Notes under the pieces: model-generated | What the model was told of the DNA's origin: nothing | Databases searched by the model: none | The model's input: the letters and a program-made list of their open reading frames with translations, nothing else | In this document: positions 29,763 to 49,862 of the stretch, one piece after another | Position numbering within the stretch: position 1 is the first letter of the stretch | How the letters are laid out: every line of letters starts with the position of its first letter | From: an uncultured Gemmatimonadota bacterium | GTDB taxonomy: Bacteria; JAAXHH01 | DNA length: 64,000 bases | NCBI GenBank assembly: GCA_951812955.1 | Contig: OX638340.1 | Location: forward strand, 1,792,001-1,856,000 | Direction of reading: 5' to 3' | Program-made: the position numbers and the translations under genes

Positions 29763-30185
29763 AGGTAGCTCCCAAGTTGCTGAGTGAGGGAATTGGGAAG
29801 GAACTACGACTATGAAGGCCGGGAGGGGATCTTGACTGCCAACGTCGGGGAATTAGATCAGATGAAGCGATTTTGCCATGGGAGTCGTTTGTGGTATGTA
29901 TGAATTCAGGTAGGTATGGGAGTATCAGTGCGGTGCCGGGCAGTGAATTGAGGTGATGTCCACAAATTCGGATCAACCTGTCCAGCGACAGTTTGCCCTG
30001 CATGAACGAGAAGCATTTGCCCACCCAGTTACCGACCATGGCCTTTACCTCGCGGACGTGTCGTGACTGACGGCGTCTCTACCCCGTTTAACTAACGTGG
30101 TCGGTCGCGAGTTCCCATGAAACTGTTACATTTGTAAAAGAAACAGTTAACAATTGCAGACCGGGTCGGTAAAATCTGCTGCAAA

Positions 30186-31409
30186 TCAGGAATTTGAAAC
30201 ATTGGGCGGCCGCAACCCGACATATTTGGCCCGCGGCCGAATCAACTGGTCCCTTTCGTACTGCTCGATCGCGTGTCCGATCCAGCCGGCGGTGCGGCCC
30301 AGGGCGAACAGGGCCATGGCGCTTCCTTCGGGCATCTTAAGGACGCGAACCAGCGCCGTAAGGGCCAGGTCGATGTTGTACCTGTCCGGAATGAGCCGGT
30401 GGGTCGTATCGATGATTTCACGGGCAAGCTGCAGATCCTTCGAACCCGGAAATCGATCTTCCAGCTTGTGCAACAGCAGGCTCGCTCTCGGGTCCTCGCC
30501 GCGGTAAACGGCGTGCCCGAACCCTGGAATCTTCTCGCCAAGCCGCAGCCGGTGGGCGATCGCCAGTTCAGTGCTACCGGCCGATTCCACCTCTTGGAAC
30601 AGCGATTCGACGCGCTCGCTGGCCGCGCCGTGCTTATAGCCGCGCAGTGCGGCGAGTCCCGCGCAGACCGCGCTATAGGGCGTCGTACCTGCCGACGCGG
30701 CGCATCGCACCGTGAAGGTCGATACATTCAACTCGTGATCCGCGAACAGTACCAGCGTCGTATTGATCAACTCCGCCGCGCCATCTATATCCGCGGCCCA
30801 GGCCCTTCGCAAGGCCTGGGCGATCCCGCCCATCGGGTCTACGCCCGTGGCCACCCCCGTCATGAACCAGAGAATCCGCATGCCCGTAGCGGCGACCGCG
30901 TCCCTTCGCAGGTCCAGTGCGGCCAGGTCATCCGCCTCCGCAAGGGGCAGCAATGTTTGAAAGCGTTCGACGGGCTTCAGCGACTTCATTTTCAACCAGG
31001 ATTCCCGAAAATCTCTCTGGTAGGTATTTGAGAAAATCGGAAAGGAGAATCGTTTGTCTCCCGTCCAGATCAGTGCAGCGACGCGCTCAAACGATTCTTT
31101 CGCCGCAAGTATCGTCGCGTCGCGCCCTCTGTAAAACAACCTTTCGTCGGTGATCAGGGTAATGGCCGATTCAAGGATGGGATCTCCTGTATGCAAGGCG
31201 CGCTTGACCGCCCAGCCCGGATTCTGGCGGGCTTTCTTACGGGCCTTCAACCGCTCGATATCTTCACTGCGGTACAAACGCGTCCGCCGGCCGTCTCCGC
31301 TTTCTTCGGATCGGATCATGCCCCGGCTGACGTACGCATATAGTGTCGACGGATTGATGTTCAGTACGGAAGCCGCCTCGGTGGATGTCATGTATCTTCG
31401 GCTGTTCAT
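30186..31409 (-). CDS. Excisionase-type HTH domain fused to a citrate synthase-like domain (putative enzyme-derived regulator or divergent citrate synthase)
   Basis: The N-terminus MTSTEAASVLNINPSTLYAYVSRGMIRSEE...RLYRSEDIERL resembles HTH_17/Xis-like. The rest carries a citrate synthase fold with GFGHAVYRGEDPRA and the HELNVSTFTVR motif. Confidence 0.7.
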   Translation of the reverse strand: MNSRRYMTSTEAASVLNINPSTLYAYVSRGMIRSEESGDGRRTRLYRSEDIERLKARKKARQNPGWAVKRALHTGDPILESAITLITDERLFYRGRDATILAAKESFERVAALIWTGDKRFSFPIFSNTYQRDFRESWLKMKSLKPVERFQTLLPLAEADDLAALDLRRDAVAATGMRILWFMTGVATGVDPMGGIAQALRRAWAADIDGAAELINTTLVLFADHELNVSTFTVRCAASAGTTPYSAVCAGLAALRGYKHGAASERVESLFQEVESAGSTELAIAHRLRLGEKIPGFGHAVYRGEDPRASLLLHKLEDRFPGSKDLQLAREIIDTTHRLIPDRYNIDLALTALVRVLKMPEGSAMALFALGRTAGWIGHAIEQYERDQLIRPRAKYVGLRPPNVSNS

Positions 31410-31450
31410 GAATTAGTCCTCTCGAAAATGAGCTGTTTGGCGGACTGGGC

Positions 31451-31519
31451 CCGTGGCGTCACGGACGGGCCTGAGGTGTCAATGGCGGGCGCGTGGCGTC
31501 AATGGCGGGCCCGTGGTGG
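31451..31519. repeat. Three tandem ~20-bp direct repeats (consensus GCGTGGCGTCAATGGCGGGC) in the divergent promoter region
   Basis: Copies CCGTGGCGTCACGGACGGGC, TGAGGTGTCAATGGCGGGC and GCGTGGCGTCAATGGCGGGC plus a partial 4th copy are read directly. The same intergenic region holds an AT-rich imperfect palindrome TTGATAT...ATATCAA at 31598-31640. Confidence 0.6.
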
Positions 31520-31706
31520 TTCCGGCCGCGGACGGTATGTAAGGTGCGCCGGATTTGCGAGGTGCGCCTTCTATTTATCCCAATTCGAAAATAGATGTTG
31601 ATTGATATTTTAATCAATATTGACAATATATCAAAACGCTTTTTTGTTATATACTGACCGGCCAGAGACGCGCAACGTTCAATCTGACTAGAACAGGAGC
31701 ATTGCT

Positions 31707-32785
31707 TTGCATCATATCGCGGTATTGCCCGGTGACGGGATAGGTCCGGAAATTACTCGAGAAGCGGTAAAAGTACTGAAGGTTGTCGGCAGGTACCACC
31801 ACCTGGATCTTGCCTTCTCCCATCATCTCATAGGAGGAGCTTCGATAGACGCCCGTGGCGATGCGCTTTCTAAAGAGGTAGTTTTACATGCAAGCAAAGT
31901 GACGCGGTCCTTTTCGGCGCGGTGGGCGGCCCCAAATGGGACCACCTCGACATGGCAGACCGGGCGGATCAATCCCTTATTCGTTTAAGGCAGGAACTGG
32001 CCGTGTATGCGAATCTAAGGAAATTCAGTTCGTACGCGGGTTTGGAAGACGCGTCGGCGGTCAAAGCCGATCGCATGGACGGGGGCATTGATTTCATCAT
32101 AGTGCGCGAACTTTCCAGTGGCGCGTACTATGGTCGACCGAAATTCATGGAAAAAACGCCCAGGGGTAGAAGGGCCGTCGACACCATCGAGTACTTCGAT
32201 TTTCAGGTTGAACGACTGGCGCGTTACGGATTCGAACTGGCGCGACACAGGCGATGCAAATTGACCTCGATGTCCAAATGGAACGTTTTGGAAACCTCCA
32301 GGCTCTGGCGCGATGTGGTCGAGGAAGTGGCCAAGGATTATCCCGATGTGGATACACGGCACGAAATAATCGACGCTGGTGCGATGAACCTGATCCTGAG
32401 ACCCAGCGAGTACGACGTCATCATTATGCCCAACATGTTCGGCGATATCCTTGGAGATGAGGCAGCTGTCCTGGCCGGCTCGATCGGTATGGTCCCGTCC
32501 GCGGAGATATCCCTGGATAGCACGTCTTTGTACGAGCCCATACACGGGAGCGCCAATGATATCGAGGGGCGGGACATCGCCAATCCCCTGGGGATGATTC
32601 TAAGTGCCTCAATGCTTCTCAGGTATAGCCTCAATTGCCCGGAAGGTGCCGACAACATCGACCAGGCGGTCGAGACTGTGATCTCGAATGGATACAGGAC
32701 GGCCGATATCTGGTCTTCAGAAGATCAGAAGAAAGTATCAACAACGGAAATGGGGGACCTGGTGGCTGAAATTTTGGCCGCGTAG
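31707..32785 (+). pseudogene. 3-isopropylmalate/isocitrate dehydrogenase family gene (LeuB-like) interrupted by a +1 frameshift
   Basis: Two overlapping ORFs, 31707..31988 ([14 protein letters not shown]-terminus, TTG start, GGAG RBS) and 31922..32785 (GGPKWD...GSANDIEGRDIANPLGMILSASMLLRYSL), together give a ~360-aa IPMDH. The frames meet at a TTTT run at 31882-31885. Adding one T would restore ...[23 protein letters not shown], which matches the LeuB consensus. Confidence 0.6.
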
Positions 32786-32817
32786 CCGTATCAGCTTGAT
32801 TACGACAGGAGCCTATC

Positions 32818-33933
32818 ATGTCTTATTCACCCGGACTCAAGGACATCGTCGCGGCGGAAACTCGGCTGAGTCATGTAGATGGAGAAGCCGGCAAACTGGT
32901 CATCGGTGGATATCCGCTCGAAGGGATCGCGGAACGAGCGACGTACGAGGAGATGGCGCACCTACTCTGGCACGGGTCACTGCCTGACGCGGCCGCCCTG
33001 GATCGATTCGCTGGCGAACTGGCCGCCGGCCTCGCGCTATCCGGTACTTCGATCGACATCCTGCGGAACGCCGCGAAGGAACGCCGCCCCGTCATCGACG
33101 CCGTTCGCATGACCGTTGCCTCCCTTCCCTCCACCGACGATGCCGCGGACGCCCGGTCCCTGGTGACCGGATTGCCGATCGTCGTGGCAGCCTACTGGCG
33201 TCTTCTTCACGGGAAAGAACCTGTAGAACCCGACCCCGTCCTCGGTCACGTGGCCAACCTGCTGTACATGCTGCACGGCGAGATTCCCGGAGACGAACGT
33301 GTACGCGCACTCACGACATACCTCAACACCGTGATCGACCACGGCATGAACGCATCTACGTTCGCGGCACGCGTCATTGTGTCCACACGTTCCGACTTCA
33401 TCTCGGCTGTTACGGGCGCCATCGGCGCGCTTAAGGGTCCGTTGCACGGCGGGGCGCCGGGTCCGGTCATTTCCATGCTCGAAGCGATTGGCGACGCTGA
33501 CAACGCTGACGATGCAGAACGATACCTCCGCAAAAAACTTGAATCAGGTGAACGCCTCATGGGTTTCGGACATGCCGTGTATCGCGTTCGAGACCCGCGG
33601 GCCGATGTACTCTCGCGCGCCGCCAGATCCTTTTTCGCCGATGAAGACGAGCTATACGCCCTGGCCCTGCACGTCGAGAAGACCGCTATCGAACTGCTCG
33701 AAGAATACAAGCCAGGTCGGCGTCTGCAGACCAACGTGGAGTTCTATACCGCCCTGCTCCTCCGAGGGCTGGGCCTCCACCCGGACCTGTTCACCCCCAT
33801 GTTCGCCACGGGACGTGTCGCAGGTTGGGTTGCCCATTGCATGGAACAACGGTCCGTTGACCGCATCTTCCGGCCCGAGTCCCGGTATACGGGCATTGAA
33901 TCAAATCGCTGGACGCCGGTCGAAGATCGATGA
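32818..33933 (+). CDS. Citrate synthase / 2-methylcitrate synthase family enzyme
   Basis: GFGHAVYRVRDPRA, GPLHGGA and the HGMNASTFAARV motif; 371 aa. Confidence 0.8.
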   Translation: MSYSPGLKDIVAAETRLSHVDGEAGKLVIGGYPLEGIAERATYEEMAHLLWHGSLPDAAALDRFAGELAAGLALSGTSIDILRNAAKERRPVIDAVRMTVASLPSTDDAADARSLVTGLPIVVAAYWRLLHGKEPVEPDPVLGHVANLLYMLHGEIPGDERVRALTTYLNTVIDHGMNASTFAARVIVSTRSDFISAVTGAIGALKGPLHGGAPGPVISMLEAIGDADNADDAERYLRKKLESGERLMGFGHAVYRVRDPRADVLSRAARSFFADEDELYALALHVEKTAIELLEEYKPGRRLQTNVEFYTALLLRGLGLHPDLFTPMFATGRVAGWVAHCMEQRSVDRIFRPESRYTGIESNRWTPVEDR

Positions 33934-34029
33934 GCGACGGCAGTTTCTCAGTAGGGAATCGACTTTATCCTAATGGGGCCTTGTCAGTACTTCGGGGTTT
34001 TCTATAGTGCTAGCTATACGGTGCAATCC

Positions 34030-34049
34030 TATTGTACAATTGTACAATA
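34030..34049. promoter_or_regulatory. Perfect 20-bp palindrome TATTGTACAATTGTACAATA (two tandem TTGTACAA boxes)
   Basis: Read directly from the sequence, in the AT-rich intergenic region upstream of the PhyH gene at 34295. The TTGTACAA core recurs at 50788 and 56745. Confidence 0.5.
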
Positions 34050-34152
34050 CAAATCCGAATTGTCAGGTTTGATTCAAGTCCTTGATCGGTCCGAACGGAA
34101 TATACTGGCATTTAGCATTTCATGTTTTCATTTTAGTTGACGTCTGAGCGAC

Positions 34153-34247
34153 TGGCGCATCGGTCGACGGCTGACAAATTGGTCGGCGACTGGCGCAATG
34201 GTCGGCGGCATGCGCAATGGTCGGCGGCATGCGCAATGGTCGGCGGC
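34153..34247. repeat. Five tandem 19-bp direct repeats (TGGCGCAATGGTCGGCGGC-like), ending about 50 nt upstream of the PhyH start
   Basis: Units at 34153, 34172, 34191, 34210 and 34229; the last three are near-identical (A/TGCGCAATGGTCGGCGGC). They share a CAATGG...CGGC core with the 31451-31519 array. Confidence 0.65.
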
Positions 34248-34294
34248 TGGCACTTTCGAAAATCCCAGTATCGATTCCAGGAAAGGAATCCCCC

Positions 34295-35185
34295 ATGGCG
34301 ATGGTCGACATGAAACAGATCCACGGTCTGGAAGATGTCACGGGGCTGCTGACGCGTCCCGACGAACTACGACAACGTGCCGTGGAGCAAGGTTGTCTGT
34401 TCTTTCGCGGACTTCTCGATCCGGGGAGCGTCCTTGAGGTCCGGCGGCAGGTGCTCGGCGTGTGCCGGGACCACGGGTGGCTCGCGGATGAATCGGACCT
34501 GATGGATGGCGTCGCGAATCCCGGAATCCGCGTAGGTGAAAGCGGCATCCCTAGCTGGCAGGCCTTTTACGATGACGTGCAGCGGATCCGCGATTTTCAC
34601 GCGCTCGCACTGGACCCGTCGATGATCGGGATGCTGGAAGCGCTGTTCGGAGAAACGGTACTGGCCCACAGCCGGAATATCTGCAGGCTGGTGTTCCCGG
34701 ATATGAACGCCCACTCGACACCGCCCCACCAGGACAACTACTTCATCGGCGGATCGGACGAGACGTGGACGGCCTGGATTCCCCTGGGCGACTGTCCCGA
34801 GGAACTCGGCGGACTCGCCGTCAACCGGGGATCCCATCGCAGGGGCATGCTGGAGACGACCGAAGGCGTCGGACCCGGCGGGCGGCAGGTGTACGTCGAA
34901 GACGATTCCACCTGGGTCGGCGGCGACTATGAATGTGGCGACGTGATCATTCTCCACAGCCTGACGATCCACCAGGGCCGGGACAACGTGACATCTGACC
35001 GCCTCAGGATTTCGACCGACTACCGTTACCAGCCAAGAAGCCACCCGGTCCGGGAGGATTCACTCCAACCACACATGAACTGGTTGACCTGGGACGAGAT
35101 ATACGAACAGTGGGATGAGGAAGATCCGGTGAAGTACTACTGGAAGGGCTGGGACTTGGACGTGGTCACGCGGGAGCCTCGATAG
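34295..35185 (+). CDS. Phytanoyl-CoA dioxygenase (PhyH) family protein
   Basis: ORF 34217.. trimmed to the ATG at 34295 (AGGAAAGGAA RBS). The upstream part of the ORF is simply the translated repeat array. PPHQDNYF...GSHRRG motifs are present. Confidence 0.7.
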   Translation: MAMVDMKQIHGLEDVTGLLTRPDELRQRAVEQGCLFFRGLLDPGSVLEVRRQVLGVCRDHGWLADESDLMDGVANPGIRVGESGIPSWQAFYDDVQRIRDFHALALDPSMIGMLEALFGETVLAHSRNICRLVFPDMNAHSTPPHQDNYFIGGSDETWTAWIPLGDCPEELGGLAVNRGSHRRGMLETTEGVGPGGRQVYVEDDSTWVGGDYECGDVIILHSLTIHQGRDNVTSDRLRISTDYRYQPRSHPVREDSLQPHMNWLTWDEIYEQWDEEDPVKYYWKGWDLDVVTREPR

Positions 35186-35219
35186 GCGTCGCAGGGAGAG
35201 CAACCGGAGAAACGCCGCT

Positions 35220-36350
35220 GTGCGCATCGTGGGAGCCGCGCTGATCCGCTACTTGAACATGCCCAATTCCTTCTCCAAAACCGTCAAGCACCTGATTCGT
35301 CTCTTCCTCAGTAAACCGATGGCGGCACCGGTTGATATGACGGGACGCCACGTAATCGTAACCGGCGCGTCCCCTGGTTCGCTCGGGTACGAAACCGCGC
35401 GGGTCCTTGCGGGTTGGGGCGCGACGGTCGCAGCAACCTGCGTGCGCAATGTCCCTCTCATGGAAGCGACATTAAAAGACGACTTGCTTAAGCTAGGCGC
35501 CAGTGAGGACAACATCACGGCCCACAGGTTGGACCTCAGCGATCCGGACAGCGTAAACGACTTCGCCGCATGGTACCGCGACAGACACCAGGGTAAGCTC
35601 CACGTACTGGTCAACAACGCGGGCATCCACCGGAAGACCTTCGCACCACGCAAGCAGCCGCCGCTGGCCGAAGATGGCTTCGAAATACACTGGCGGACCA
35701 ACTACCTCGGCGCTTTTCACCTGACCTGGGTCCTGCTGCCCTTCCTGCAACGGACAGGACTCGAAAGCGGCGACGCACGCGTTGTCAACGTGTCCTCCGG
35801 CCTGCACGAACGGGTCGGGAACGAGGACCTTTTCGATGAGGGGACGCGCCACGGAGTGCCGCACCGCGAGGAGCCACGACAAGGAAGACCGCGCGACGGG
35901 GAGCCGCTCCAAGGGGAGCCGCGCTCCGATATGCCGCGCTACCACTCCTGGGACGCCTACGGAAAGTCGAAACTGGCGATGATCCACATGGCATTTGAGA
36001 TCGAAAGACGATTCGCCGAATCCCACAATCTGCACGCGGTGGCTGTGCATCCGGGTGTCGTGATGACCAACCTGACCCTTCCACAGGCGTTTCGTGGACT
36101 GTTGGGCAAGGCATTGCATCGAGTCAGTACCGCGCTGACCTCACTGGTCCTGCTGTCTCCGAATGCCGGGGCGCAGACCATTGTGATGTGTGCGAGCCAG
36201 CGGCAACTGCAAGGTGGGAAATACTACGAGCGCTGCGCCGTCGGCGAGCCGTCCGCGGACAGCCAGGACGAGACCGTGGCAAAACGCCTTTGGGACCTGT
36301 CGGAACTGTGGGCCGGGACGCTCGCACAGTCAGGTGGAGATGCCCGTTGA
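35220..36350 (+). CDS. Short-chain dehydrogenase/reductase (SDR) with an internal Pro/Arg/Glu-rich insertion
   Basis: VIVTGASPGSLGYETAR (TGxxxGxG), NNAG and YGKSK (YxxxK) motifs. There is an unusual insertion HREEPRQGRPRDGEPLQGEPRSD with a GGGGAGCCGC nucleotide repeat. The GTG start at 35220 is uncertain; alternative ATGs lie at 35259 and 35337. Confidence 0.65.
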   Translation: MRIVGAALIRYLNMPNSFSKTVKHLIRLFLSKPMAAPVDMTGRHVIVTGASPGSLGYETARVLAGWGATVAATCVRNVPLMEATLKDDLLKLGASEDNITAHRLDLSDPDSVNDFAAWYRDRHQGKLHVLVNNAGIHRKTFAPRKQPPLAEDGFEIHWRTNYLGAFHLTWVLLPFLQRTGLESGDARVVNVSSGLHERVGNEDLFDEGTRHGVPHREEPRQGRPRDGEPLQGEPRSDMPRYHSWDAYGKSKLAMIHMAFEIERRFAESHNLHAVAVHPGVVMTNLTLPQAFRGLLGKALHRVSTALTSLVLLSPNAGAQTIVMCASQRQLQGGKYYERCAVGEPSADSQDETVAKRLWDLSELWAGTLAQSGGDAR

Positions 36351-36495
36351 CGATTCATGAAGTCCGTACCGGTCCCATCATGTTCAGCTTGACTGCCAGG
36401 ATTCACAAACTGCACGGCATTCGCGGCTCACACGACTCTCACGGCACCCACGGCACGCAGAGTAAAACCGGAATCAATCCACAAGGACATGCAAT

Positions 36496-37257
36496 TTGGA
36501 CAGCGAACTACTGAAACGGGGATTCGCACCTCGGCCGCTGACGGACGCGCAACGCAGCGCGCTGGACACCGATGGCTTCATCGTGCTGGAGGAGGTCATC
36601 TCGCCAGACTGGCTCTCCGAACTGCGCCATGCATTCGATGAGATATTTGACAGCGAGGGCGATAGAGCCGGTGAGGAGGTCTCCCAGATGGAAGGGGTGC
36701 GCCGGCTTGCCGATCTGGTCAACAAGGGATCGGTATTCGATGCGGTTTACCTGCAGCCCGAGCTTTTGACGGCCGTCTACCATGTCCTGCAGAGGCCGTT
36801 CAAACTGCACTCGCTCAACGGGCACGACCCGCTTCCCAGCAACGGGTTACAGGTGCTGCACGCCGATTGGGGCCAACCTGCCGAGCCCGGCGGGCCGTAT
36901 CATGTCGTTAACTCTTTGTGGATGCTCGACGATTTCACCCTCGCCAACGGTGCGTCACGCTGCGTGCCGGGCAGCCACCTGAAACCCGGCAGGATCGGCG
37001 ACCTCGTAACGGACCGCCTGGCGGACCACCCCGACCAGGTACACCTGACGGGCCGTGCGGGATCGGTTGCCGTATTCAACGGCAGCCTCTGGCACAGCTC
37101 GTATGTCAACCTCAGCGGTGCCCCTCGCCGGACCCTGCACTGCGCCTTCATAGCCCGCGAACACCCGCAACAGACTAATCAGCGGGAGTATCTGCGGCCC
37201 GAGACCGCCCAACGGCTATCCCCACTGGCGCGCTACATCCTCGACGTCCCTCCGTAA
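36496..37257 (+). CDS. Phytanoyl-CoA dioxygenase (PhyH) family protein
   Basis: VLHADWG...PGSHLKPG...SLWHSS motifs. TTG start with an AAGGA RBS. Confidence 0.7.
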   Translation: MDSELLKRGFAPRPLTDAQRSALDTDGFIVLEEVISPDWLSELRHAFDEIFDSEGDRAGEEVSQMEGVRRLADLVNKGSVFDAVYLQPELLTAVYHVLQRPFKLHSLNGHDPLPSNGLQVLHADWGQPAEPGGPYHVVNSLWMLDDFTLANGASRCVPGSHLKPGRIGDLVTDRLADHPDQVHLTGRAGSVAVFNGSLWHSSYVNLSGAPRRTLHCAFIAREHPQQTNQREYLRPETAQRLSPLARYILDVPP

Positions 37258-37496: not shown

Positions 37497-39572
37497 CTAG
37501 TTCACTAACTCAAATACATGCTTAACACTACCGTCCGGTTTTAACACGAGCCCAAACCACTTTTCCAACTTATGTGGGTATACACTTTCTTTGGAATCCC
37601 GGTGAAATTTCTCCTCTAACACCTCCACGGTAGATCTACTACAGTAAATAAACAGTCCTATAGGTAAACCTGGGAACAAAGCACGAACTGTCTGGCTCTT
37701 CTTATTTAATAAATGCCGATTACAAATCCGATTGATATTTTTGTTTATAGTTTTACAAACATCGTCAGACAAGGTTATCAAGAAAAGCCCAAGGTCGATT
37801 TTCAATGGATCGGGGGAGGTTTCCAATTCCTTCAAGATGCTTCCCAAGGGCGTACCAACCAATCTTGTCAGTATGCCATCTGGAGTCGGTATTCCGTCTA
37901 TGCCGTCCCTCCTGACCGCCATTGCAGTATCGAGATGCACTGAGAAATCGTCATCAATTAACATCAAGTCAATATCGTCTCTAAGCCATAGGTTATGTCT
38001 TAGGTGATAGGACAGCAACATATGCTCATGACTCGCCATCAGACGCTCGCCAAATCGTGCCCGTAACTCAAGGTAACTTAAAAACCATAGAGGCGTAGAT
38101 AACATTTCTGATATCGCATCGAGTGAAAAAACGTCGGTGACAAGTGGAGGTAAAATCTGAGTAGTTGACTTGTATTCTAAAAACTGTCTCAACTGAAAAG
38201 CCAACGCCGGGTAATGGTCCGCGATGATTGCTACAGGAAAAATAACCTTCTGAGATTCTTCTATACGGATTACCTCGTTGTTCTTGGTATATAGACTTAC
38301 GGACTGATCTCCGAGGAGTTTAGCACACTCAAATGACTGCTCTACTGCATCTTGAATCGCCATCCTAAAGTCGGATCTTAACACTCGATCGTTCCCTCTT
38401 CGAGATTCCAGTGTTAGCCTTTTTGATTTCGATTGCACCAAAACAACCCGGTCGCCAAATATCACCAAGACATCAATCTCTCCAAGTGTGTGCCCTTTGG
38501 TCTTTCGTAACTCGACGTTTTTATACACTCGATCAGAACCAAAGACATGAACAAGTCTATCATATGTAAAGCTCTCCGTGAAATCCCCTCGATGTGTAAG
38601 TGCTGTTGGTGCATACAAACTATCAGTGCACATCCAATAGAACGGTGTTTCATAAAACGCTTCCGTTAATCCGTAATACTGCAAGAGTACGTATTTATCT
38701 ACATCTCTACGTATGAACGGGTAGATATAGGCTTTGTTAAAGTCATTGATAGTTGAGAAGCCAGCATTTCTTTCGCAAGAAGGTAAAGTAAATGCGTTTA
38801 CAAATGCTTGAACGTCTTCTGTAGGAAATCCTATATAGGAAGCAAGTTCAGTGCAGGAAAAGGTAAAGAAAGGTAAGACCGCCCGATCCTTAGCAGGCCC
38901 TTTTATTTGGTCGCTCAAGACTGTTTCTAAACTCCGGTTTAGGACGTAAGGAATCCCATCACACACCGCCTTTCCAACTACCAAATCAACTGATTTGTTC
39001 TGAGAAAGCCAGTCGGAATCGAGACTGTATTTTGTCAATGCTAGATCACGGTATTGAAAGGGATATGCAGACTCGCCTGCGTAGAAAATGGGTTCCCTAA
39101 GGGATTCCCCGGTAGAGAATGGATTTGCATTAGGGACAGACCCGCCGACTACTCTCCGCTGCATCAACTTCAACGTAGGTTGCACCATAGTTAAGTGCAA
39201 TTCATCCAACAGTTCCGCGGACTTCTTGATGTAATCATTAAGAACTGTAGGTGTTGGCATGGAAAAGTCGATAGGGCCTCGCATCATGAGACCGATTAGC
39301 GTGGTGATTTCGGTACGGATTAGCTGCGAATGGGATCGCCATTGAAGAAGTTCGTCGGAATTTAGTTCATCCTTGAAACCGACGACATTGTCCCGCAGTG
39401 AAATAAAAGCGATTGCGTGAATAAAACCTACGGAGAGGCACAATGCAGCCAGGTCATCAAACACAGACTGTTCTGAGCGCATATAAACGATCCTGGGCTG
39501 TAGCAGACAATTCCAAATTGCGTCTATTGGATTCGAAAGCCAAGAGTTGGATTCTGAATCCGAACCGTTCAT
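37497..39572 (-). CDS. Large (691 aa) protein with a central NERD-like PD-(D/E)xK nuclease motif; N- and C-terminal regions unassigned
   Basis: FGSDRVYKNVELRKTKGHTLGEIDVLVIFGDRVVLVQSKSK at residues ~343-384 fits the NERD / PD-(D/E)xK pattern (GE..hh...E-h-D-hhhh...hhhh-Q/E-x-K). No Walker A motif. AT-rich codon usage. Confidence 0.55.
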   Translation of the reverse strand: MNGSDSESNSWLSNPIDAIWNCLLQPRIVYMRSEQSVFDDLAALCLSVGFIHAIAFISLRDNVVGFKDELNSDELLQWRSHSQLIRTEITTLIGLMMRGPIDFSMPTPTVLNDYIKKSAELLDELHLTMVQPTLKLMQRRVVGGSVPNANPFSTGESLREPIFYAGESAYPFQYRDLALTKYSLDSDWLSQNKSVDLVVGKAVCDGIPYVLNRSLETVLSDQIKGPAKDRAVLPFFTFSCTELASYIGFPTEDVQAFVNAFTLPSCERNAGFSTINDFNKAYIYPFIRRDVDKYVLLQYYGLTEAFYETPFYWMCTDSLYAPTALTHRGDFTESFTYDRLVHVFGSDRVYKNVELRKTKGHTLGEIDVLVIFGDRVVLVQSKSKRLTLESRRGNDRVLRSDFRMAIQDAVEQSFECAKLLGDQSVSLYTKNNEVIRIEESQKVIFPVAIIADHYPALAFQLRQFLEYKSTTQILPPLVTDVFSLDAISEMLSTPLWFLSYLELRARFGERLMASHEHMLLSYHLRHNLWLRDDIDLMLIDDDFSVHLDTAMAVRRDGIDGIPTPDGILTRLVGTPLGSILKELETSPDPLKIDLGLFLITLSDDVCKTINKNINRICNRHLLNKKSQTVRALFPGLPIGLFIYCSRSTVEVLEEKFHRDSKESVYPHKLEKWFGLVLKPDGSVKHVFELVN

Positions 39573-39708
39573 CCATGGCTTTTAACTTTAGATTCTCCAG
39601 ATAGCTGTTTCGGATAATTAAACAAGTCAGTTCGCCGGAAACATCTCGTGCAACCCGCGCTGATACACCGTTGGTGACTACAGCTTCACCGTCGGTGTGA
39701 ACGCACCT

Positions 39709-39957
39709 TTACCGGTTGTTGTGATTATCCACGGGTTTGTTTTCTTCTGAAGCGTGGTGGTCATCGCCTAACGGGATTAAATCCTTCGATATAGCCAGCG
39801 AACCGCCTATTAGAGCCATGAGTGGAGACTTTACGACTTCGTAAGCGTCCTCCGCTGTCATTCCTCCGCTCCAACACATCGCAACGAAGATGATTATAAG
39901 CGAAGAGTAACCTAAACCCACAAGGACCAGTACATTCTTCCGCCACGGAACCTTCAT
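39709..39957 (-). CDS. Small 2-TM membrane protein preceding the NERD-like gene
   Basis: ORF 39709..39990 trimmed to the second of two adjacent ATGs (GGAGGA RBS). It carries the hydrophobic helices VLVLVGLGYSSLIIIFVAMCW and LMALIGGSLAI. Same strand and same low-GC composition as the NERD gene. Confidence 0.45.
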   Translation of the reverse strand: MKVPWRKNVLVLVGLGYSSLIIIFVAMCWSGGMTAEDAYEVVKSPLMALIGGSLAISKDLIPLGDDHHASEENKPVDNHNNR

Positions 39958-40029
39958 CATATCCTCCTTTTGGGTATTCTCCCAATTCACATAATATGTT
40001 TGACAATCGCTTTATAATGCTCCGAGCAA

Positions 40030-41445
40030 CTAACCAAACAACTCCTGCACCATTCCCCGCGCCCGATCGATCACGGTTTCGAGACAGCCGGGTGCTAGCT
40101 TGGCCCAGTAGGTGACATCTTCGTTGGCCTCGTGTCCACCGCGGGCATATGCCTCCCTCGTCGGCAGGTAACCGACATAGTGCGTCGTGAGGTGTGCCGG
40201 AAACAGATAGGAAGCTGGCGAGTTTACTTTAAGCGACAGTTGTCCTTCCACAAAGGGCTCACCGGGGAGGCCTACAATACAAAGATTACCGATGCGCAAG
40301 GCCTGTATCTCATAGCTGAACTCGCCGTCCCTCTGCCTGCATAGTTCGACGCTGCGGGTCGATGCCGCCCGAAACCAGCGCGGCTCCACTTGACCGTTCT
40401 CTTCGCGCGGCGGTTCCGGATGCTCAGTGAGAATCGCATCGACTTCGCGCAGTCGTTCGTCCGATATCTCGCGAAAGGGCAGTCTGATCTTTTCTATCCT
40501 TGTATCTAGCGCAGCATCGCCGGCGAACGTCATGTTGCGCATGATACGTTCGCTCAGACCGGATAATCCTCGCCCCATACGCCGGTGGTCCGGCTTAAAA
40601 TCGGGGTCGAAGGGGTGCCAGGGGTTGATGTTGCCGCAACATCCGTTGACGACCAACGGCACGGAATCCGGATCGAAAATCTGCTGCATCTCCCGGGACC
40701 AGGCGCCGGGCCAATCCGCCGACGCGGCCATGAAGGTCTCCTCGTTTCCGTATGCATTGACCGGATGACACGTGTAGTGCAGGAGAAAGGCCAGCGGTTT
40801 CGAATTCATATCCTGGACGCAGCACACGCCTACCTCCGGGTCCATCGGCCCTTCCAGGTAGCACACATCCGAGATCCCGAAGGGCTGCCGCTCCCGACCA
40901 AGGGGTCTGGGCATAACTATGGTACCGTCCCTTCGAACGCCGCGGCGGTTAAAAGCCAGGTCGCCCAACACGCCGCGGCCCAGACCGATGCGTGCCGGTT
41001 GTAGCCTGCCGGCTGCCTCGACCGCGGCCTCAACGGCAGCGGCTGCGGCCCGGTCGCCATAGGCGCGTTCGGCCCCCCGCAGATACTCCGTTTCCTCGCT
41101 AGTCTCCATTGGAAAATCCGAATCCAGCATGAAGTAACCGAGGCTCGGGGCGGAATGCGTCTGCGTCGCCTGGACCATGATGGCGTCTCGTTCTATGCCC
41201 GTCTGCTCGCTGATGGCCGCACGGATCCGGTCTGTGTATTCACCGGTGACAATGGTGAGATCCAGGATCACGATGCAGACGCGCCGCCCATCCGCTTCGA
41301 AAACGATGGCCTTGGCAAAGAGCGGATCCAAAACGGCCTGGGTCGGACGGTGGTCACCGGCTCCGCTGCCCGCCAGATGCGTCCCCTCCGAAGGGGATAT
41401 GTCGATCATTGCCGCACCGGCGCTCAGCTGGTTCGACTCGTTCAT
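40030..41445 (-). CDS. Neutral/alkaline ceramidase family protein
   Basis: ORF trimmed to the ATG at 41445 (AAAGGAAAG RBS). AIMVQATQTHSAPSLGY and LLHYTCHPVNAYG resemble neutral-ceramidase catalytic-domain motifs (THTHSGP / AIHPVS) as remembered. Confidence 0.55.
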   Translation of the reverse strand: MNESNQLSAGAAMIDISPSEGTHLAGSGAGDHRPTQAVLDPLFAKAIVFEADGRRVCIVILDLTIVTGEYTDRIRAAISEQTGIERDAIMVQATQTHSAPSLGYFMLDSDFPMETSEETEYLRGAERAYGDRAAAAAVEAAVEAAGRLQPARIGLGRGVLGDLAFNRRGVRRDGTIVMPRPLGRERQPFGISDVCYLEGPMDPEVGVCCVQDMNSKPLAFLLHYTCHPVNAYGNEETFMAASADWPGAWSREMQQIFDPDSVPLVVNGCCGNINPWHPFDPDFKPDHRRMGRGLSGLSERIMRNMTFAGDAALDTRIEKIRLPFREISDERLREVDAILTEHPEPPREENGQVEPRWFRAASTRSVELCRQRDGEFSYEIQALRIGNLCIVGLPGEPFVEGQLSLKVNSPASYLFPAHLTTHYVGYLPTREAYARGGHEANEDVTYWAKLAPGCLETVIDRARGMVQELFG

Positions 41446-41796
41446 GGCTTTCCTTTCGCAGTCTGAAGAGTAACCCGTGGGGCGTAACCCAGGGACCCGC
41501 GCGGGGATTATCCCGTGTGGGGAGGATCCCAGTCCATGTGGGGAGTAACTCGTAACGTACAGACTATGGCACCAGTACCGTTTCGTCAACGCCGTTCAGC
41601 CTTGACAGACGCGTGTATCTTACTTGTATCACAGTGTACGAAGATATGGGTTAAACGGCGCGGTCCAGTGGAGTACTCGAGCAACAGGCGAACGGAGCGC
41701 CGCGTATTAGCCGCCGGCCAGTTGATGAAGACCGACATGCATGATGAAGACTAACGCACAGAATGGTCACACCATCTGAGAAAGGACTGGTCAATC

Positions 41797-42936
41797 ATGA
41801 TTGAATTGCTCGGCATCGGCCACTTTTTTGAACTTACACGGTCGGAAGCTATTATGGGGTTTTTCACCCCGCTGATCGTCTATGCCGTGTTTTTCCTGGT
41901 GCAGCTCATCCTGCCCGGGCGGAGGGTTCCCGGTTACGTCATCAATCCGGAGACGGGTAAACCGCGCAATTACCGGCTCAACGGCATGCTCGTGTTCCTG
42001 ATCATGCTGATCGTCTGGGCGTTCGAACTCACCGGGATGCCCCACGACTGGTTCTTCCGGTCCTCGATCTACGCTGTGGCCGGCGGAACGGTTTTCGCCA
42101 TTATCTTTACCATAATCGCGACATTTACCCAGCCTGAAGGCAAGGTGAAGAGCCGGTTCCTGGCATGTTGGTTCGGCCGGGCCCAGGAGATTTCGTTCTT
42201 CAACGAGCGTATCGACGTTAAGATGTACATGTACGTTGTCGGCGGGTCGATGCTGTCGCTAAACGCCCTATCCGGGGCCGTGTACCACTACCAGGTATTT
42301 GGAGAGAACGCCAACCCAGGCGTTTTCATCTATGCGGGTTTCTTCACGTTCTACATCCTCGATTACTTCGTCTTTGAGCGCGTGCAACTCTACACCTACG
42401 ACCTGATCCACGAGAATGTGGGCTTCAAGCTGATCTGGGGCTGTCTCGTGGTCTACGGATGGCTATTCATCCTCCCGCTTTGGGGCATGGCCGCCTACCC
42501 GAACCCAGGCTTCTCACCGGCATGGACGAACTTCTGGCTGATTGGCACCTCAGCACTGTTCCTGTTGGGATGGAGCATTTCCCGCGGCGCCAACCTGCAG
42601 AAGTATACGTTTAAAAGGTGGCCCGAACGAAAGTTCCTGGGGCTCATCGAACCGAAATACATTCAGGCTGGCGACCGCAAGATACTCTACAGCGGCCTGT
42701 GGGGCGTCGCCCGCCATCTCAACTACATGGGCGAGGGCTTCCTTTCCCTGTCCATCGCCCTGATATTCGGCTATTTCACCAATTTCTGGGCCTGGACCTA
42801 CCTCCTCTTCATCGTCTCGATGTTCTCCTACCGTCAACTCGATGACGACAGGCACTGCGCCGAGAAATACGGTACCAAAAAGTGGGCGGAATACCAGGAG
42901 AAGGTGAAGTACCGGATCGTGCCGGGGATTTATTGA
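41797..42936 (+). CDS. ERG4/ERG24 family sterol reductase-like integral membrane protein
   Basis: GLWGVARHLNYMGEGFLSLSIAL matches the sterol-reductase signature (RHPNYxGE), and roughly 8 TM helices are predicted; 379 aa. A GAAAGGA RBS lies upstream. Confidence 0.6.
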   Translation: MIELLGIGHFFELTRSEAIMGFFTPLIVYAVFFLVQLILPGRRVPGYVINPETGKPRNYRLNGMLVFLIMLIVWAFELTGMPHDWFFRSSIYAVAGGTVFAIIFTIIATFTQPEGKVKSRFLACWFGRAQEISFFNERIDVKMYMYVVGGSMLSLNALSGAVYHYQVFGENANPGVFIYAGFFTFYILDYFVFERVQLYTYDLIHENVGFKLIWGCLVVYGWLFILPLWGMAAYPNPGFSPAWTNFWLIGTSALFLLGWSISRGANLQKYTFKRWPERKFLGLIEPKYIQAGDRKILYSGLWGVARHLNYMGEGFLSLSIALIFGYFTNFWAWTYLLFIVSMFSYRQLDDDRHCAEKYGTKKWAEYQEKVKYRIVPGIY

Positions 42937-43400
42937 GCGAGGTTATGAGAAACGCTAGTTCAGATTGCTTCCAAATCGTAGCGATATAGATCAGCGGACC
43001 AGGGAAGAGGGCATACCCTCTCAAGCGCTGCCGTCTAGCGCCATCCAAAGGCACCTGTCCGGCCGCCTTACAGAGAAGAAGTAAAATGACCCTGTGTCCG
43101 CCTCTGCATGGGCACCGGGGTTGTATTAAACCGGTTTGTCGACGAGCTTTTTATCCTCCTCGCCCGGTTGGTACTCCTTACATATCCTGGTGACCGGTTT
43201 TACCCGAACCTGACCAGACTCATCTTCCTCTGTTTATCACATGAAGCATACTGATCTACGGTTGCGCTGCTGTCTGCGAATGCTATATTGCCTCGTCGAC
43301 AACGTAAACGCACGCGACCCAAATGCACCCGAACCAAACGCACCTGAAGAAAATACACTCATAGCAAATGCACGCACCGAACAGGAAACGTTAGGATAGT

Positions 43401-45713
43401 TTGAACATGACAAAGGCTAGTTTGATTTTTACGGCAGTGGCGCGCTGTTGTATGGCAGCGGGCGCAATTTACTTCGCGAGCGCGATTCATTCCACTCCGA
43501 CCGCCGACGCCCAGGTTACCGAGCATCGGCTCACCATTCTCCACACCAACGATCTACAGGGCGGTATCTACTCCGAGGACGGTTTCGACGATGGGGACCA
43601 GGCTGGGAACCAGGATCCGGAAGATGCGGCGGACCGGGGCGGCCTGGCCACGCTCGCGTCGATGATCCAAGCCCATGGCCGCGCCGGTGCAGACTCGATC
43701 TTGGTACTGGACGGCGGAAATGCCATGGGCGCGACGCCTGCCTGCGACGTGGACGGCTGCCGCACGCTGTTTCAACTCATGAGTATGGCGGGGTACGATG
43801 CCATGGCCGTAGGCAGCCACGAGTTCACATATGGTATCGACACCCTCACCACCCGTGCGGGGCAGGCGGATTTCCCCATACTGGGCGCTAATCTGGGACT
43901 TGGCGACACGGTCCATGGGGCCACCACGCCATTCCTCCTGACCGAAAGGAGCGGATTGCGGATCGCCGTCATGGGGCTCGTTTCCTCCCGAACGGCCGAC
44001 GACCTTTCATCGGTGAACCCCGCGGACTTGGAATTCCACGATCCGCGGGCGACGCTCGAGTCACTTCTGGCTGGGCCCGCGGGCCTCGCAGACTTGCGAA
44101 TCGCACTCGTCAACATGAGCATGGACGAGGCAAGGGACCTCGCGCTGGCCTTTCCCCAGGTACAGCTGTTCATCGCGGGAGGCACGGCTGCCGGTCCCGA
44201 ACCGCGCCCTGCGGAACATGTGGTCCGCTTCGTCGGTGGTCGATACCTGGTTACCACGCCGGGACGGGGTACCCACCTGGGTAGACTCGAAATCACTTTC
44301 CGCCGGGACGGTGCCAAGACGGTTGTTTCCAATCTGATTCCCGTCCTGGTACCTGCCGGTTCGTCCCTGCTTCCATACCTCGCGACCGCAACAGGTTCGT
44401 CCGATACATCCGGTGCCGCGACACCAAATCCTGCGCCCGTGCCTATGGATCCCGCGGTATCGGCTCTCGTCGCCGGGCACAGAGAAACCGTGCGCAGAAT
44501 CTATGACGTCCGCATTGGCAGGACCCGGGAACCCATCGAGGATACCGGATCCTGGATCGCCGACCTGGCGCGCACGAAACTGGCGGCCGACGTCGCGGTG
44601 ATCGATCGGCACGCGCTTCGGCCGTTACGATTGGACGGGGAGGTTCGACTGCGTTCGGTTACACGGCTGGTGCGCGACAACGATGTGCTGGTCCGCGTTT
44701 CCATGTCTGGACGGCAGTTGCGGACATGGGCCGGCGGGCTGCCGCGGGAACACGAAGTGGTCTTTGCGGGGTACGATGGGGATTCCGGCGAGGTCGACGG
44801 GCGGCCGCTGAATCGGGACAGGACGTACGTGGTGGCAGTCCCGTTGGTCCTGGCGGATCAGAATCTGACCCGGCAGGTCAGGAATTCTCGCTTATCGAAC
44901 GTTCCCGGTGCACGCATTGGACTGAGGGAAATGGTGGCAGCCCACGTGCGGATTCACGGTACCGTGGACCGCTGGCAGGGAATTCGGCGGGGGCCGCGCA
45001 GTGCAACGGAGGGCAGCACACGGTTAAACGGCTCCTTGTCGCAGACTACGCTGGAAGGGCCCGTCGACCAGTACAGCCGCGATCCGTTCCTGAGTGGAGA
45101 GGAAGCCCTGGCCTGGATCGTCAACGTAGAGCACAATTCAACCCGGTACACCCCGGCGGGAACGTTTTCGGCTCTGTTGAGGACAGGCTACGGCAGGTTG
45201 AACAACAACGGGAGCCAACGGGAGGCCTTGGACCGGATCGACGGCGAACTGCTCTATTCACTGCCGCATTCGCAACTGTCCCAGTTCCTCGGGTTCGACG
45301 TCAACACGGTGTGGACGGGTGACGAAGGTCGGAAACACCCTGTTGTGCTTCGGTTCAAGGGAGGTCTCCAGTCGGAGCTCGGTTCCCAGGCGATCGTTCG
45401 TGTCGGTCTGGCCCTGGAGAGAGACCGGATCACCGCGATGAATGTCGTGGGCATCGAGGTGGCGCCCGAGTACCGGACGACACTTCTTCCAGGCAATACG
45501 CTATCGTCTCAGGCCCGCGTTTTCTGGGGAACCGGTCAGCACCAGACCATGTCTGTACAGCACTTCAACCACCTGCGTTTCCGCCTGCTGGACGATCTTG
45601 CCGCCACGCTCGACGCGAACATCTTCCTCCACCGGGACAGCGACATCGACCGGTCGGCCGTCAAGTTCGAACTGCAGGTCGGCCTCGGATACGACTGGCG
45701 TTACTACAGGTGA
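43401..45713 (+). CDS. Secreted bifunctional metallophosphatase/5'-nucleotidase family protein with a ~250-aa C-terminal extension
   Basis: Signal peptide, then LTILHTNDLQGG, GNAMG and GSHEF metallophosphatase motifs and a 5'-nucleotidase C-domain. The extra C-terminal domain has alternating hydrophobic residues (possible beta-barrel) and ends in ...GYDWRYYR. Confidence 0.6.
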   Translation: MNMTKASLIFTAVARCCMAAGAIYFASAIHSTPTADAQVTEHRLTILHTNDLQGGIYSEDGFDDGDQAGNQDPEDAADRGGLATLASMIQAHGRAGADSILVLDGGNAMGATPACDVDGCRTLFQLMSMAGYDAMAVGSHEFTYGIDTLTTRAGQADFPILGANLGLGDTVHGATTPFLLTERSGLRIAVMGLVSSRTADDLSSVNPADLEFHDPRATLESLLAGPAGLADLRIALVNMSMDEARDLALAFPQVQLFIAGGTAAGPEPRPAEHVVRFVGGRYLVTTPGRGTHLGRLEITFRRDGAKTVVSNLIPVLVPAGSSLLPYLATATGSSDTSGAATPNPAPVPMDPAVSALVAGHRETVRRIYDVRIGRTREPIEDTGSWIADLARTKLAADVAVIDRHALRPLRLDGEVRLRSVTRLVRDNDVLVRVSMSGRQLRTWAGGLPREHEVVFAGYDGDSGEVDGRPLNRDRTYVVAVPLVLADQNLTRQVRNSRLSNVPGARIGLREMVAAHVRIHGTVDRWQGIRRGPRSATEGSTRLNGSLSQTTLEGPVDQYSRDPFLSGEEALAWIVNVEHNSTRYTPAGTFSALLRTGYGRLNNNGSQREALDRIDGELLYSLPHSQLSQFLGFDVNTVWTGDEGRKHPVVLRFKGGLQSELGSQAIVRVGLALERDRITAMNVVGIEVAPEYRTTLLPGNTLSSQARVFWGTGQHQTMSVQHFNHLRFRLLDDLAATLDANIFLHRDSDIDRSAVKFELQVGLGYDWRYYR

Positions 45714-45771
45714 CCGCGGAAGCGCCTGAGCTTGCTGGTCCATTTACCGAAACAGGGCCACTTCGGCGCAC

Positions 45772-46509
45772 TCAGTTCTTCCTCGCCACATGCCGATCTT
45801 CATACACACCCTTCAGAAACTTCTTCGGATTGAATTCTTCGGGCATGTAATGCCATGCTGTACTGTAGCGCGTGCGATGGCTGTGATTATCATAGGCGCC
45901 GTGCAGCAGATTTGCGGAAAACAGCACGACCGTCCCCGCGGGGATGACCAGGTCCACCGCCTGCGCTTCATCGACCTTCGTCCAGCTGCCATGGCGGCTT
46001 AATTCGCTGCAGTGCTCGACAATCTCGCCTATCCGGTGGCTGCCGGGCACTACCCGCAGACAACCATTCTCCACGTCTGCATCTTCCAGGTAAATTCCGC
46101 AGCTGACAATACGATCCGTGTCGGTCCCAAAATAGAAATTGTCCTGGTGCCAGCCCGTCGACGTGCCGCCATTGGGCAGCTTCGGGAAGAACTTGGTACC
46201 GAACACGTCGATATCTCCACCAATCAGATCGGCCACACGGTCCACAATCGCCGGCTCGCGCGCCAGTTCCAGCACACGGTCGTCGACCACGCAAACCCCC
46301 TGGACTTTGTGCAACAAACCCGCCCGAGGTTCGCCTCGCTCGTCCAACTCGAGCGCCCAGTGGGGTGTCTGCTCTTTCAATTTGCTTCCCTCGGCGACCA
46401 TTTCATCGAACACCTGCTTGTACCAGTCCAGTCGCTCACCTTGAATGAGGGCTTCAAAAACGAGATAGCCATCTTCTCGAAACTGCAGTATCTGTTCGCT
46501 AGTCAACAT
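45772..46509 (-). CDS. Phytanoyl-CoA dioxygenase (PhyH) family protein
   Basis: ORF trimmed to the ATG at 46509 (GAGG RBS). GWHQDNFYF...PGSHR...LLHGA motifs. Confidence 0.7.
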   Translation of the reverse strand: MLTSEQILQFREDGYLVFEALIQGERLDWYKQVFDEMVAEGSKLKEQTPHWALELDERGEPRAGLLHKVQGVCVVDDRVLELAREPAIVDRVADLIGGDIDVFGTKFFPKLPNGGTSTGWHQDNFYFGTDTDRIVSCGIYLEDADVENGCLRVVPGSHRIGEIVEHCSELSRHGSWTKVDEAQAVDLVIPAGTVVLFSANLLHGAYDNHSHRTRYSTAWHYMPEEFNPKKFLKGVYEDRHVARKN

Positions 46510-46636
46510 GAGAACCTCATTAGAATCCGCGTCCTTCGCCAACTAGCGCTCCAGCAGTCGGCGACCGGCGGCGGCCATCTTCCCCGCAATCCGCTTATCT
46601 TCCTCGCGCTCCGACAAGTAGCAACAGGCCGCGGGA

Positions 46637-47660: not shown

Positions 47661-49862
<2,202 letters not shown>

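Follow-up and report, generated by a model that had tools for sequence, protein, structure and literature searches.

The 64,000-nucleotide stretch of DNA analysed here (the window), positions 1,792,001 to 1,856,000 of contig OX638340.1 from an uncultured Gemmatimonadota bacterium (assembly GCA_951812955.1), encodes a protein in which a helix-turn-helix (HTH) domain is fused to a citrate synthase (CS) domain. The gene for this fusion protein is divergent from an operon that begins with a leuB-like gene and continues with a canonical small CS gene, and further downstream lie genes for a PhyH protein, an SDR protein and a second PhyH protein (Table 1). Two tandem repeat arrays, one beside the fusion gene and one ahead of the first PhyH gene, had been taken in an initial annotation, made from the sequence alone, as the operators of the fusion protein. 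The element that accompanies fusion genes across phyla is instead an AT-rich dyad in the region between the divergent genes. Sequence comparison makes it rather probable that the fusion protein is a dimeric, trigger-enzyme-like regulator, acting through this dyad and not through the arrays on its own gene and on the divergent leuB-like/CS operon.

The two-domain architecture claimed in the initial annotation, an HTH joined to a complete CS-like domain, is borne out by Pfam matches above the curated cut-offs. At the N-terminus, MerR_1 matches residues 7-62 (34 bits, against a cut-off of 21.6) and HTH_17 matches residues 6-58 (32.1 bits, cut-off 27), and Citrate_synt covers residues 77-393, from profile position 6 to 357 of 357 (E 4.9e-61). 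The 'excise' profile TIGR01764 scores 26.6 bits, under its cut-off of 28.8. The open reading frame (ORF) starts with MNSRRYMTS, six codons 5' of the MTSTEAAS given in the annotation, and the close homologues are likewise 407 residues long. An AlphaFold2 model computed with 67 family members as input has a mean pLDDT (predicted local distance difference test) of 89.7, with low confidence in the linker (residues 63-76, pLDDT 56-60), and agrees with the profile searches that the N-terminal segment is an HTH. Residues 6-62 are modelled as b1-a1-a2-b2-b3-a3, and the modelled fold is that of the MerR/excisionase winged-helix group. The closest solved folds to the isolated HTH are RacA, BldC, Pukovnik Xis, SoxR and NmlR, with GlnR also near; Pukovnik Xis superposes at 1.5-1.7 Å over 50 residues, and the best sequence-profile match among solved structures is SoxR (E 0.017). 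The fold was rejected as a means of choosing between an Xis-type and a MerR-type protein, both classes being equally near. Neither class describes the whole protein: in place of the coiled-coil dimerisation helix and small effector region of MerR proteins there is a helix (48-62), the linker and then the CS domain, and a stand-alone excisionase is not what we see in a protein of 407 residues whose conserved site is an inverted repeat. No integrase was found among the neighbours of the fusion gene in the window or in the neighbourhoods of two related loci (L001 and L002), and structure searches by sequence and with Foldseek returned no solved structure with an HTH and a CS domain in one chain.

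The CS body matches citrate and methylcitrate synthase structures with TM-scores of 0.65-0.78 (Foldseek, normalised to target length). Residues H225 (in DHELN), H260, H299 (in GFGH), R308, D347, R372 and R391/R393 are invariant in an alignment of 12 sequences; in the 67-sequence alignment R308 and R372 are invariant and the others are kept in at least 90% of members. Matched by motif, and taken as a set, these residues are presumably the counterparts of the catalytic His/His/Asp of the pig enzyme (H274, H320 and D375) and of its oxaloacetate- and CoA-binding residues (H238, R329, R401 and R421'). The catalytic histidine and aspartate residues, whose fate had been left as a question in the annotation, are therefore retained together with all substrate residues, and by sequence the CS domain is non-degenerate. 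With all of these residues kept, the role of ligand sensor assigned to this domain stands as a proposal, and residual catalysis is possible. The domain reaches no NCBIfam equivalog cut-off (the best is TIGR01800, 161.6 bits against 421.3), and it shares 31% identity over 222 residues with the neighbouring canonical CS.

Relatives of the fusion protein were collected from metagenomes and GTDB genomes at 170 loci (numbered with the prefix L), at identities of 36-95%. Nearly all of the best 120 homologues carry both PF12728 and PF00285, and the window protein fits the common plan of HTH_17/MerR_1 plus Citrate_synt in about 380-425 residues. They are listed at NCBI under the name 'citrate synthase family protein', and the genomes that carry them belong to Gemmatimonadota, Latescibacterota, Chloroflexota, Acidobacteriota, Rubrobacter, Alpha-, Beta- and Gammaproteobacteria, and Sorangium. 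Down to about 30% overall identity the recognition-helix segment TLYAYVSRG (T22-L23-Y24-x-Y26-V27-S28-R29-G30) is invariant or nearly so, as are the wing residues R42 and Y46 in alignments that reach the same depth.

This conserved helix has its match in an invariant half-site of a dyad upstream of the fusion genes. Within 320 bp 5' of the gene, an exact TTGAT-N5-7-ATCAA was present at 143 of the 160 non-redundant loci surveyed, which span the same range of identities and more than 8 phyla. Upstream of fusion genes the motif has a density of 2.8 per kb (144 sites in 51.5 kb); the other 1.08 Mb of the loci hold 4 sites (0.0037 per kb), which makes for an enrichment of about 760-fold. In most phyla the two half-sites are 6 nt apart (N6), in Proteobacteria 7 nt (N7). 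The family consensus, ttgTCAAtaTTGATt.a..AATCAAtatat, contains a third half-site, through which TCAAT|ATTGA arises as a second palindrome. In the window, TTGAT-N5-7-ATCAA occurs once, as dyad 1 of a composite AT-rich block that we take as the operator candidate; exact TCAAYRTTGA (TCAATATTGA) likewise occurs only there, as the central palindrome of the block. L001, L002, L003 and L091 have the whole block in identical or almost identical form, and in L084, L086, L088 and L090 it is recognisable. Where the annotation had expected head-to-tail repeats, the element conserved across the family is thus dyad-symmetric. A scan of the window gave no copy of the family dyad upstream of the PhyH gene, so the control that can be read from the sequence extends no further than the divergent operon.

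The operator candidate and the promoter-like sites are closely interwoven. The promoter-like site of the fusion gene, TTGATA-16-TAAAAT (a consensus match only), lies wholly within the block. On the other strand a possible extended -10 for the divergent operon, TGtTATATA, was read by eye where the consensus scan is silent, with counterparts TGTAATATA in L002 and TGTTAGATA in L001 and L091; the scan called no good (+) strand -35 with normal spacing. In the short intergenic regions of Acidobacteria-type loci the half-sites read as coinciding with TTGACA-17-TACGTT facing the CS gene. Across these cases the predicted promoter spacers at the dyad are 16-17 nt, and the dyad overlaps the promoter-like hexamers.

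The divergent partner is conserved as well. Of 123 non-redundant loci with enough flanking sequence, 91 have a divergent canonical small CS gene whose start is at most 400 bp away; with the limit set at 1800 bp the number is 100. In the clade of the window a leuB-like gene stands between the promoter and the divergent CS gene, and L001 and L091 (the latter from a Gemmatimonadetes metagenome-assembled genome, MAG) have the gene order of the window, fusion, divergent leuB-like, CS and PhyH, with SDR and another PhyH gene following in L001. In six Burkholderiales loci the partner is a family-III coenzyme A (CoA)-transferase and in L032 an HMGL-like enzyme, and even with such partners the dyad accompanies the fusion gene. 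The family-wide dyad and the conserved divergent target gene make the idea of an enzyme-derived regulator, which the initial annotation had put forward, very probable.

A mechanism may be proposed on this basis. Since citrate synthases are obligately dimeric, the fusion protein should offer two HTHs to a dyad. Dimerising through its CS body in the manner of other citrate synthases, it would place the two HTHs onto TTGAT-N6-ATCAA within the composite site, which overlaps with the fusion gene's core promoter elements and borders on the divergent operon promoter. Binding would most likely repress both divergent promoters; repression of both is favoured by the position of the fusion promoter inside the operator and of half-sites over the -35 and spacer facing the CS gene. 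The open-to-closed domain movement of citrate synthases on ligand occupancy is well known. Oxaloacetate, an acyl-CoA or citrate in the active site may cause this movement in the fusion protein and alter HTH geometry and DNA affinity, and repression would be relieved or tightened by the domain closure. The fusion protein would in this way act as a sensor, of the trigger-enzyme type, for flux into the tricarboxylic acid (TCA) cycle. Binding to the palindrome, the dimeric mode, repression over activation and the identity of the ligand are all steps that we infer.

The tandem arrays, to which the initial annotation had given the role of operators, do exist. With Tandem Repeats Finder (TRF) they score 91 and 117, and the best score of any repeat with a period of at least 10 in 40 dinucleotide-preserving shuffles of the window has a mean of 45 and a maximum of 72; both arrays outscore every shuffle and are therefore more than chance. 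The core that the two arrays had been said to share is less secure. Their units do resemble each other, and the best alignment, GCG(T)CAATGG(T)CGG, contains two indels and has a local score of 14, which is reached by 1.9% of shuffled units (7.1 ± 2.4), a weak likeness at a nominal p of ~0.02. A pattern common to both arrays fits both only when two mismatches are allowed, and in the window it is no more frequent than expected; a search of the window for further copies of the core found none beyond the arrays and one chance match.

Array 1 lies not in the divergent promoter, where the annotation had placed it, but between the promoter-like block and the start codon of the fusion gene, and thus probably in the 5' leader; array 2, too, is downstream of a promoter-like site, in a leader. 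In L001 and L091, whose fusion proteins are 91% identical to that of the window, array 1 is absent, and its position is taken by unrelated repeats of 14 bp x 2 (about 9960-10000 in L001) and 17 bp x 3.9 (2915-2981 in L091). The 95% identical L002 and L003 keep only some 2 units, in which GTCAGT replaces GTCAAT, and both have a different 19-bp repeat on the opposite side of the promoter block (19 bp x 2.2 at 9725-9768 in L002). Such a distinct tandem repeat beside the fusion gene in each relative suggests, as far as sequences can tell, either a duplication hotspot or selection for a variable leader. Beyond the window array 2 is found in L002 only, as about 4 degenerate units; L001, L091, L084 and L085 lack it, and their intergenic sequence at that place is another one. 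With as many as 3 mismatches allowed, the only matches to either unit in the 160-odd remaining related loci are three that chance could explain, each with 3 mismatches. The arrays are thus absent or different in orthologous loci, a result that the initial annotation had itself named as refuting its proposal, and they are very probably not the operators of the fusion protein. By this comparison, they behave as tandem duplications of recent origin, confined to this lineage, within presumed 5' leaders.

Other repeats were seen as well. The window holds 5 arrays with a period of at least 9 and a score of at least 50, so that such arrays are not peculiar to the surroundings of the fusion gene. Apart from arrays 1 and 2 there are two more intergenic arrays, unrelated to them in sequence, one at 43306-43373 (a 15-bp unit x 4.5, ending 28 bp before the gene that starts at 43401, and found also at 2393-2453 of L002), the other at 60205-60264 (10/20/30-bp units, upstream of a MacB/FtsX-like gene at 60387). 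A CCCTTTG-type run lies beside the fusion gene at about 270-370 of L083. The idea that such arrays are unusually dense in this lineage was dropped, as the window has 7.8, the close-clade loci 25 and all other loci 11 per 100 kb, a modest difference. A known RNA element in the arrays or the leader was likewise rejected, since Rfam has no match at E <= 1 in 29800-34600.

How probable, then, are other explanations of the locus? The model in which the HTH binds the arrays head-to-tail and controls its own gene together with the PhyH cluster has become very improbable. It can call on the reality of both arrays, on the likeness of their units, on an HTH fold as near to the direct-repeat binders BldC and Pukovnik Xis as to palindrome binders, and on the GTCAAT of array 1, which equals the outer half-site of the family dyad (tgTCAAta). 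This last 6-mer match has little weight, however, because GTCAAT/ATTGAC occurs 31 times in the window. The element that the family conserves is a dyad and not a direct repeat, the arrays lie downstream of the promoter-like sites, and their units change or are missing from one related locus to the next. There is a small chance that the fusion is simply a second citrate, methylcitrate or acyl-CoA-condensing synthase, with an HTH that is vestigial or non-regulatory and with a palindrome that is a shared divergent promoter or the site of another regulator. The complete CS fold, the full set of catalytic and substrate residues and the resemblance of TTGAT to a -35 hexamer on both strands would all suit such a synthase. 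A recognition helix that is near-invariant in more than 8 phyla, though, would not have survived in a vestigial HTH, nor are promoters normally kept at 10/10 positions, with the dyad spacing fixed, in groups that range from Chloroflexota to Proteobacteria. The fusion gene is moreover accompanied by the motif whatever its divergent partner, and CitC of Caulobacter, a probable member of the family, does not complement gltA whereas its neighbour CitB does.

A ligand-dependent activator of the divergent operon that represses itself at the same operator, by a LysR-like logic, is unlikely but would fit part of the evidence. The operator ends about 11 bp upstream of the possible extended -10, at the position of a -35 or of a class II activator, no good (+) strand -35 with normal spacing was called, and a divergent layout with autoregulation is typical of LysR-type activators in general. 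On the other hand, the half-sites of many family members read as overlapping a good -35 and spacer facing the CS gene, which suits repression, and the (+) strand promoter of the window was read by eye only. The dual repressor that we favour has itself to answer several points. In the window, the dyad stands just upstream of the possible extended -10, a position that also suits activation, and the HTH fold is equally near to palindrome-binding dimers (SoxR, RacA) and to head-to-tail binders (BldC, Xis). Every catalytic residue of the fusion is kept, and catalysis may thus be the primary function of the protein. The exact dyad is missing in 17 of the 160 loci, and the link between motif and protein is one of co-occurrence in sequences. 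Because the palindrome resembles two back-to-back -35 boxes, with TTGAT on each strand, part of its conservation could be promoter conservation. Lastly, in four relatives at 78-79% identity (L084-L087), the divergent CS and leuB genes are remnants of 51-173 aligned residues, yet the fusion gene is intact in all four and the operator in L084-L086 (L087 is without an exact dyad), so the adjacent CS cannot be the only purpose of the fusion protein.

Table 1. Positions of the features discussed, in window coordinates unless a related locus is named
Feature	Position	Strand	Remarks
HTH-citrate synthase fusion gene	30186..31409	(-)	407 aa; winged HTH 6-62, flexible linker ~63-76, Citrate_synt 77-393
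Array 1	31447-31516	(.)	20-bp unit x 3.5 (GCGTGGCGTCAATGGCGGGC); TRF score 91; presumed 5' leader of fusion gene
Composite AT-rich operator candidate	31598..31634	(.)	two adjacent dyads and central palindrome
Extra overlapping TTGAT of operator candidate	31598-31602		
Dyad 1 of operator candidate	31602-31617		TTGAT-ATTTTA-ATCAA
Inverted-repeat arms of operator candidate	31602-31611 and 31625-31634		
Promoter-like site for fusion gene	31607..31634	(-)	TTGATA-16-TAAAAT; consensus scan, 10/12 matches
Central palindrome of operator candidate	31614-31623		TCAATATTGA
Dyad 2 of operator candidate	31620-31634		TTGAC-AATAT-ATCAA
Possible extended -10, divergent leuB-like/CS operon	31645..31653	(+)	TGtTATATA; read by eye, consensus scan silent
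leuB-like gene (3-isopropylmalate dehydrogenase family), first gene of divergent operon	31707..32785	(+)	Iso_dh on both pieces (Pfam)
Canonical small CS, CitA/PRK12350 type	32818..33933	(+)	371 aa; Citrate_synt E 5.5e-108
Promoter-like site between CS and PhyH genes	33981-34008		TTGTCA-16-TATAGT
Perfect 20-bp palindrome	34030..34049	(.)	TATTGTACAATTGTACAATA; 22 bp downstream of promoter-like site
Array 2	34148-34251	(.)	19-bp unit x 5.5 (TGCGCAATGGTCGGCGGCA); TRF score 117; ends 44 bp before PhyH start codon
PhyH, SDR and PhyH genes	34295..37257	(+)	PhyH 34295-35185, SDR 35220-36350, PhyH 36496-37257 (Pfam)
Decayed CS/leuB remnants	L084 7368-8000; L085 2516-3165; L086 6939-8000; L087 7000-8000		
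STAS/PKS stretch upstream of CS	L086 1-5826; L088 1-4145		

The genes around the fusion gene deserve some comment. The leuB-like gene carries a 1-bp deletion near 31886 relative to its 95% orthologue in L002 (GTAGTTTTA-CATGC against GTAGTTGCATCATGC), by which it is split into two ORFs (31707-31988 and 31922-32785); the C-terminal piece alone matches TIGR00169 leuB with 327.6 bits. The gene is intact in L001, L002 and L088, and the frameshift is either that of a pseudogene or a sequencing error. The canonical CS scores 347 bits against NF009005 (PRK12350), above the cut-off of 332. At the site of the catalytic aspartate it has a glutamate (NVEF, where classical citrate synthases have NVDF and the fusion keeps aspartate in NIDL), and an alignment with PDB sequences shows the same Glu-for-Asp exchange in CitA of M. 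tuberculosis.

The PhyH gene starts at the position given in the initial annotation, and the PhyH-SDR-PhyH order is kept in the close clade (L001, L002, L084 and L085). The 20-bp palindrome between the CS and PhyH genes is kept in L002 and not in L001, L091 and L084; it is probably the operator of another regulator, for PhyH-SDR-PhyH, and unrelated to the family dyad. In L086, L087 and L088 a STAS-domain gene and a single-module polyketide synthase (PKS) of ~2350 residues (KS-AT-DH-ER...) replace PhyH-SDR-PhyH. Further along the window, 37497-49862 encodes NERD-domain and ceramidase-like proteins, a homologue of ERG4/ERG24-type sterol reductases, a further PhyH protein, a DUF4377 protein and a catalase-peroxidase. 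The nearest genome is a Gemmatimonadetes MAG, isolate IRC1_bin_16.

Full-text searches of the literature found no paper that describes an HTH-citrate synthase fusion as a regulator; a 'citrate synthase family protein' in a Collimonas paper and SCO5831 in Streptomyces papers are passing mentions with nothing on regulation. The only experimental hint, an indirect one, comes from Caulobacter crescentus, in which the neighbouring genes citB and citC (CCNA_03757/03758) encode an active CS, CitB, and a protein, CitC, that does not rescue an E. coli gltA mutant (PMC7083601). The pair resembles the fusion loci in having two adjacent CS paralogues, and the citC cloning primer OMB196 encodes MTDWMD (PMC7083601), which fits alphaproteobacterial N-termini of the fusion family such as MTDWLTANEA and MANWMSADEV (P0174). 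That paper cites the trigger enzyme concept and mentions no HTH or regulatory role for CitC; its moonlighting enzyme, CitA, is without a DNA-binding domain, unlike the fusion (PMC7083601). From the six residues and the gene order we infer that CitC is a member of the fusion family. When a Caulobacterales member served as the query, the homologues found included neither a named Caulobacter protein nor one that begins exactly with MTDWMD.

Several enzymes are known to double as regulators by means of a DNA-binding domain of their own, among them PutA (ribbon-helix-helix and proline dehydrogenase), BirA (HTH and biotin ligase) and NadR (HTH and nicotinamide mononucleotide adenylyltransferase). 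The fusion resembles them in joining an N-terminal DNA-binding domain to a catalytically equipped enzyme in one chain and in its apparent autoregulation and control of a gene of the same pathway, and by analogy the ligand state would be expected to set DNA binding. It differs from them in its citrate synthase scaffold, for which the literature searches brought up no described DNA-binding fusion, and in its MerR/excisionase-type HTH, and it is known here from sequence comparison. A whole enzyme fold also serves as dimerisation and effector module in the MocR/GabR proteins, in which a GntR HTH is fused to a fold-type-I aminotransferase domain; these too form large families with operators beside their own gene and a divergent target, but their HTH class and enzyme fold are different, and GabR binds direct repeats whereas the site of the fusion family is a dyad.

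Relatives of the HTH itself lead to similar comparisons. The MerR family (SoxR, NmlR, GlnR, TipA), RacA and BldC share the winged-HTH fold and the order of its elements, but the fusion has a CS domain in place of the C-terminal antiparallel coiled coil or small effector domain of MerR proteins, and MerR-activated promoters have spacers of 19-20 nt as against the predicted 16-17 nt at the family dyad. Excisionases are alike in their HTH_17 and TIGR01764 similarity and in the superposition of Pukovnik Xis; Xis proteins are, however, small and stand-alone and have head-to-tail sites, while the fusion is large, has an inverted repeat, and has no integrase or att site nearby. In Bacillus subtilis, CitR is a LysR-type regulator encoded divergently from the minor citrate synthase gene citA. 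This is the same arrangement of a dedicated regulator facing a secondary CS gene, but CitR is an ordinary LysR protein without a CS fold and is unrelated in sequence to the fusion.

The window protein is apparently one member of a large, phylum-spanning family that is present in the databases and uncharacterised. We would put it at slightly better than an even chance that HTH-CS fusions are a ubiquitous class of transcription factors in soil, marine and symbiont bacteria, in which an intact CS serves as sensor and dimerisation module and acts on a universal dyad, TTGAT-N6/7-ATCAA, setting the level of a second CS or a CoA-transferase by oxaloacetate, acyl-CoA or citrate. A weaker possibility is that the rapidly changing leader repeats tune expression of the fusion gene. 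As for the arrays, the lesson of the window is that GC-rich tandem repeats, however striking, make weak candidates for operators where conservation is lacking. The family operator, on the other hand, is so well conserved that regulons could be predictable straight from genome sequences, and the family has cultured carriers in Bradyrhizobium, Paraburkholderia, Achromobacter, Bordetella, Roseibium/Labrenzia and Sorangium. If this interpretation is true, thousands of bacteria would have taken over the fold of a central-metabolism enzyme to serve as the effector domain of a transcription factor, giving direct enzyme-based feedback on entry into the TCA cycle. It may also explain why 'extra', apparently inactive CS paralogues such as Caulobacter CitC are retained.

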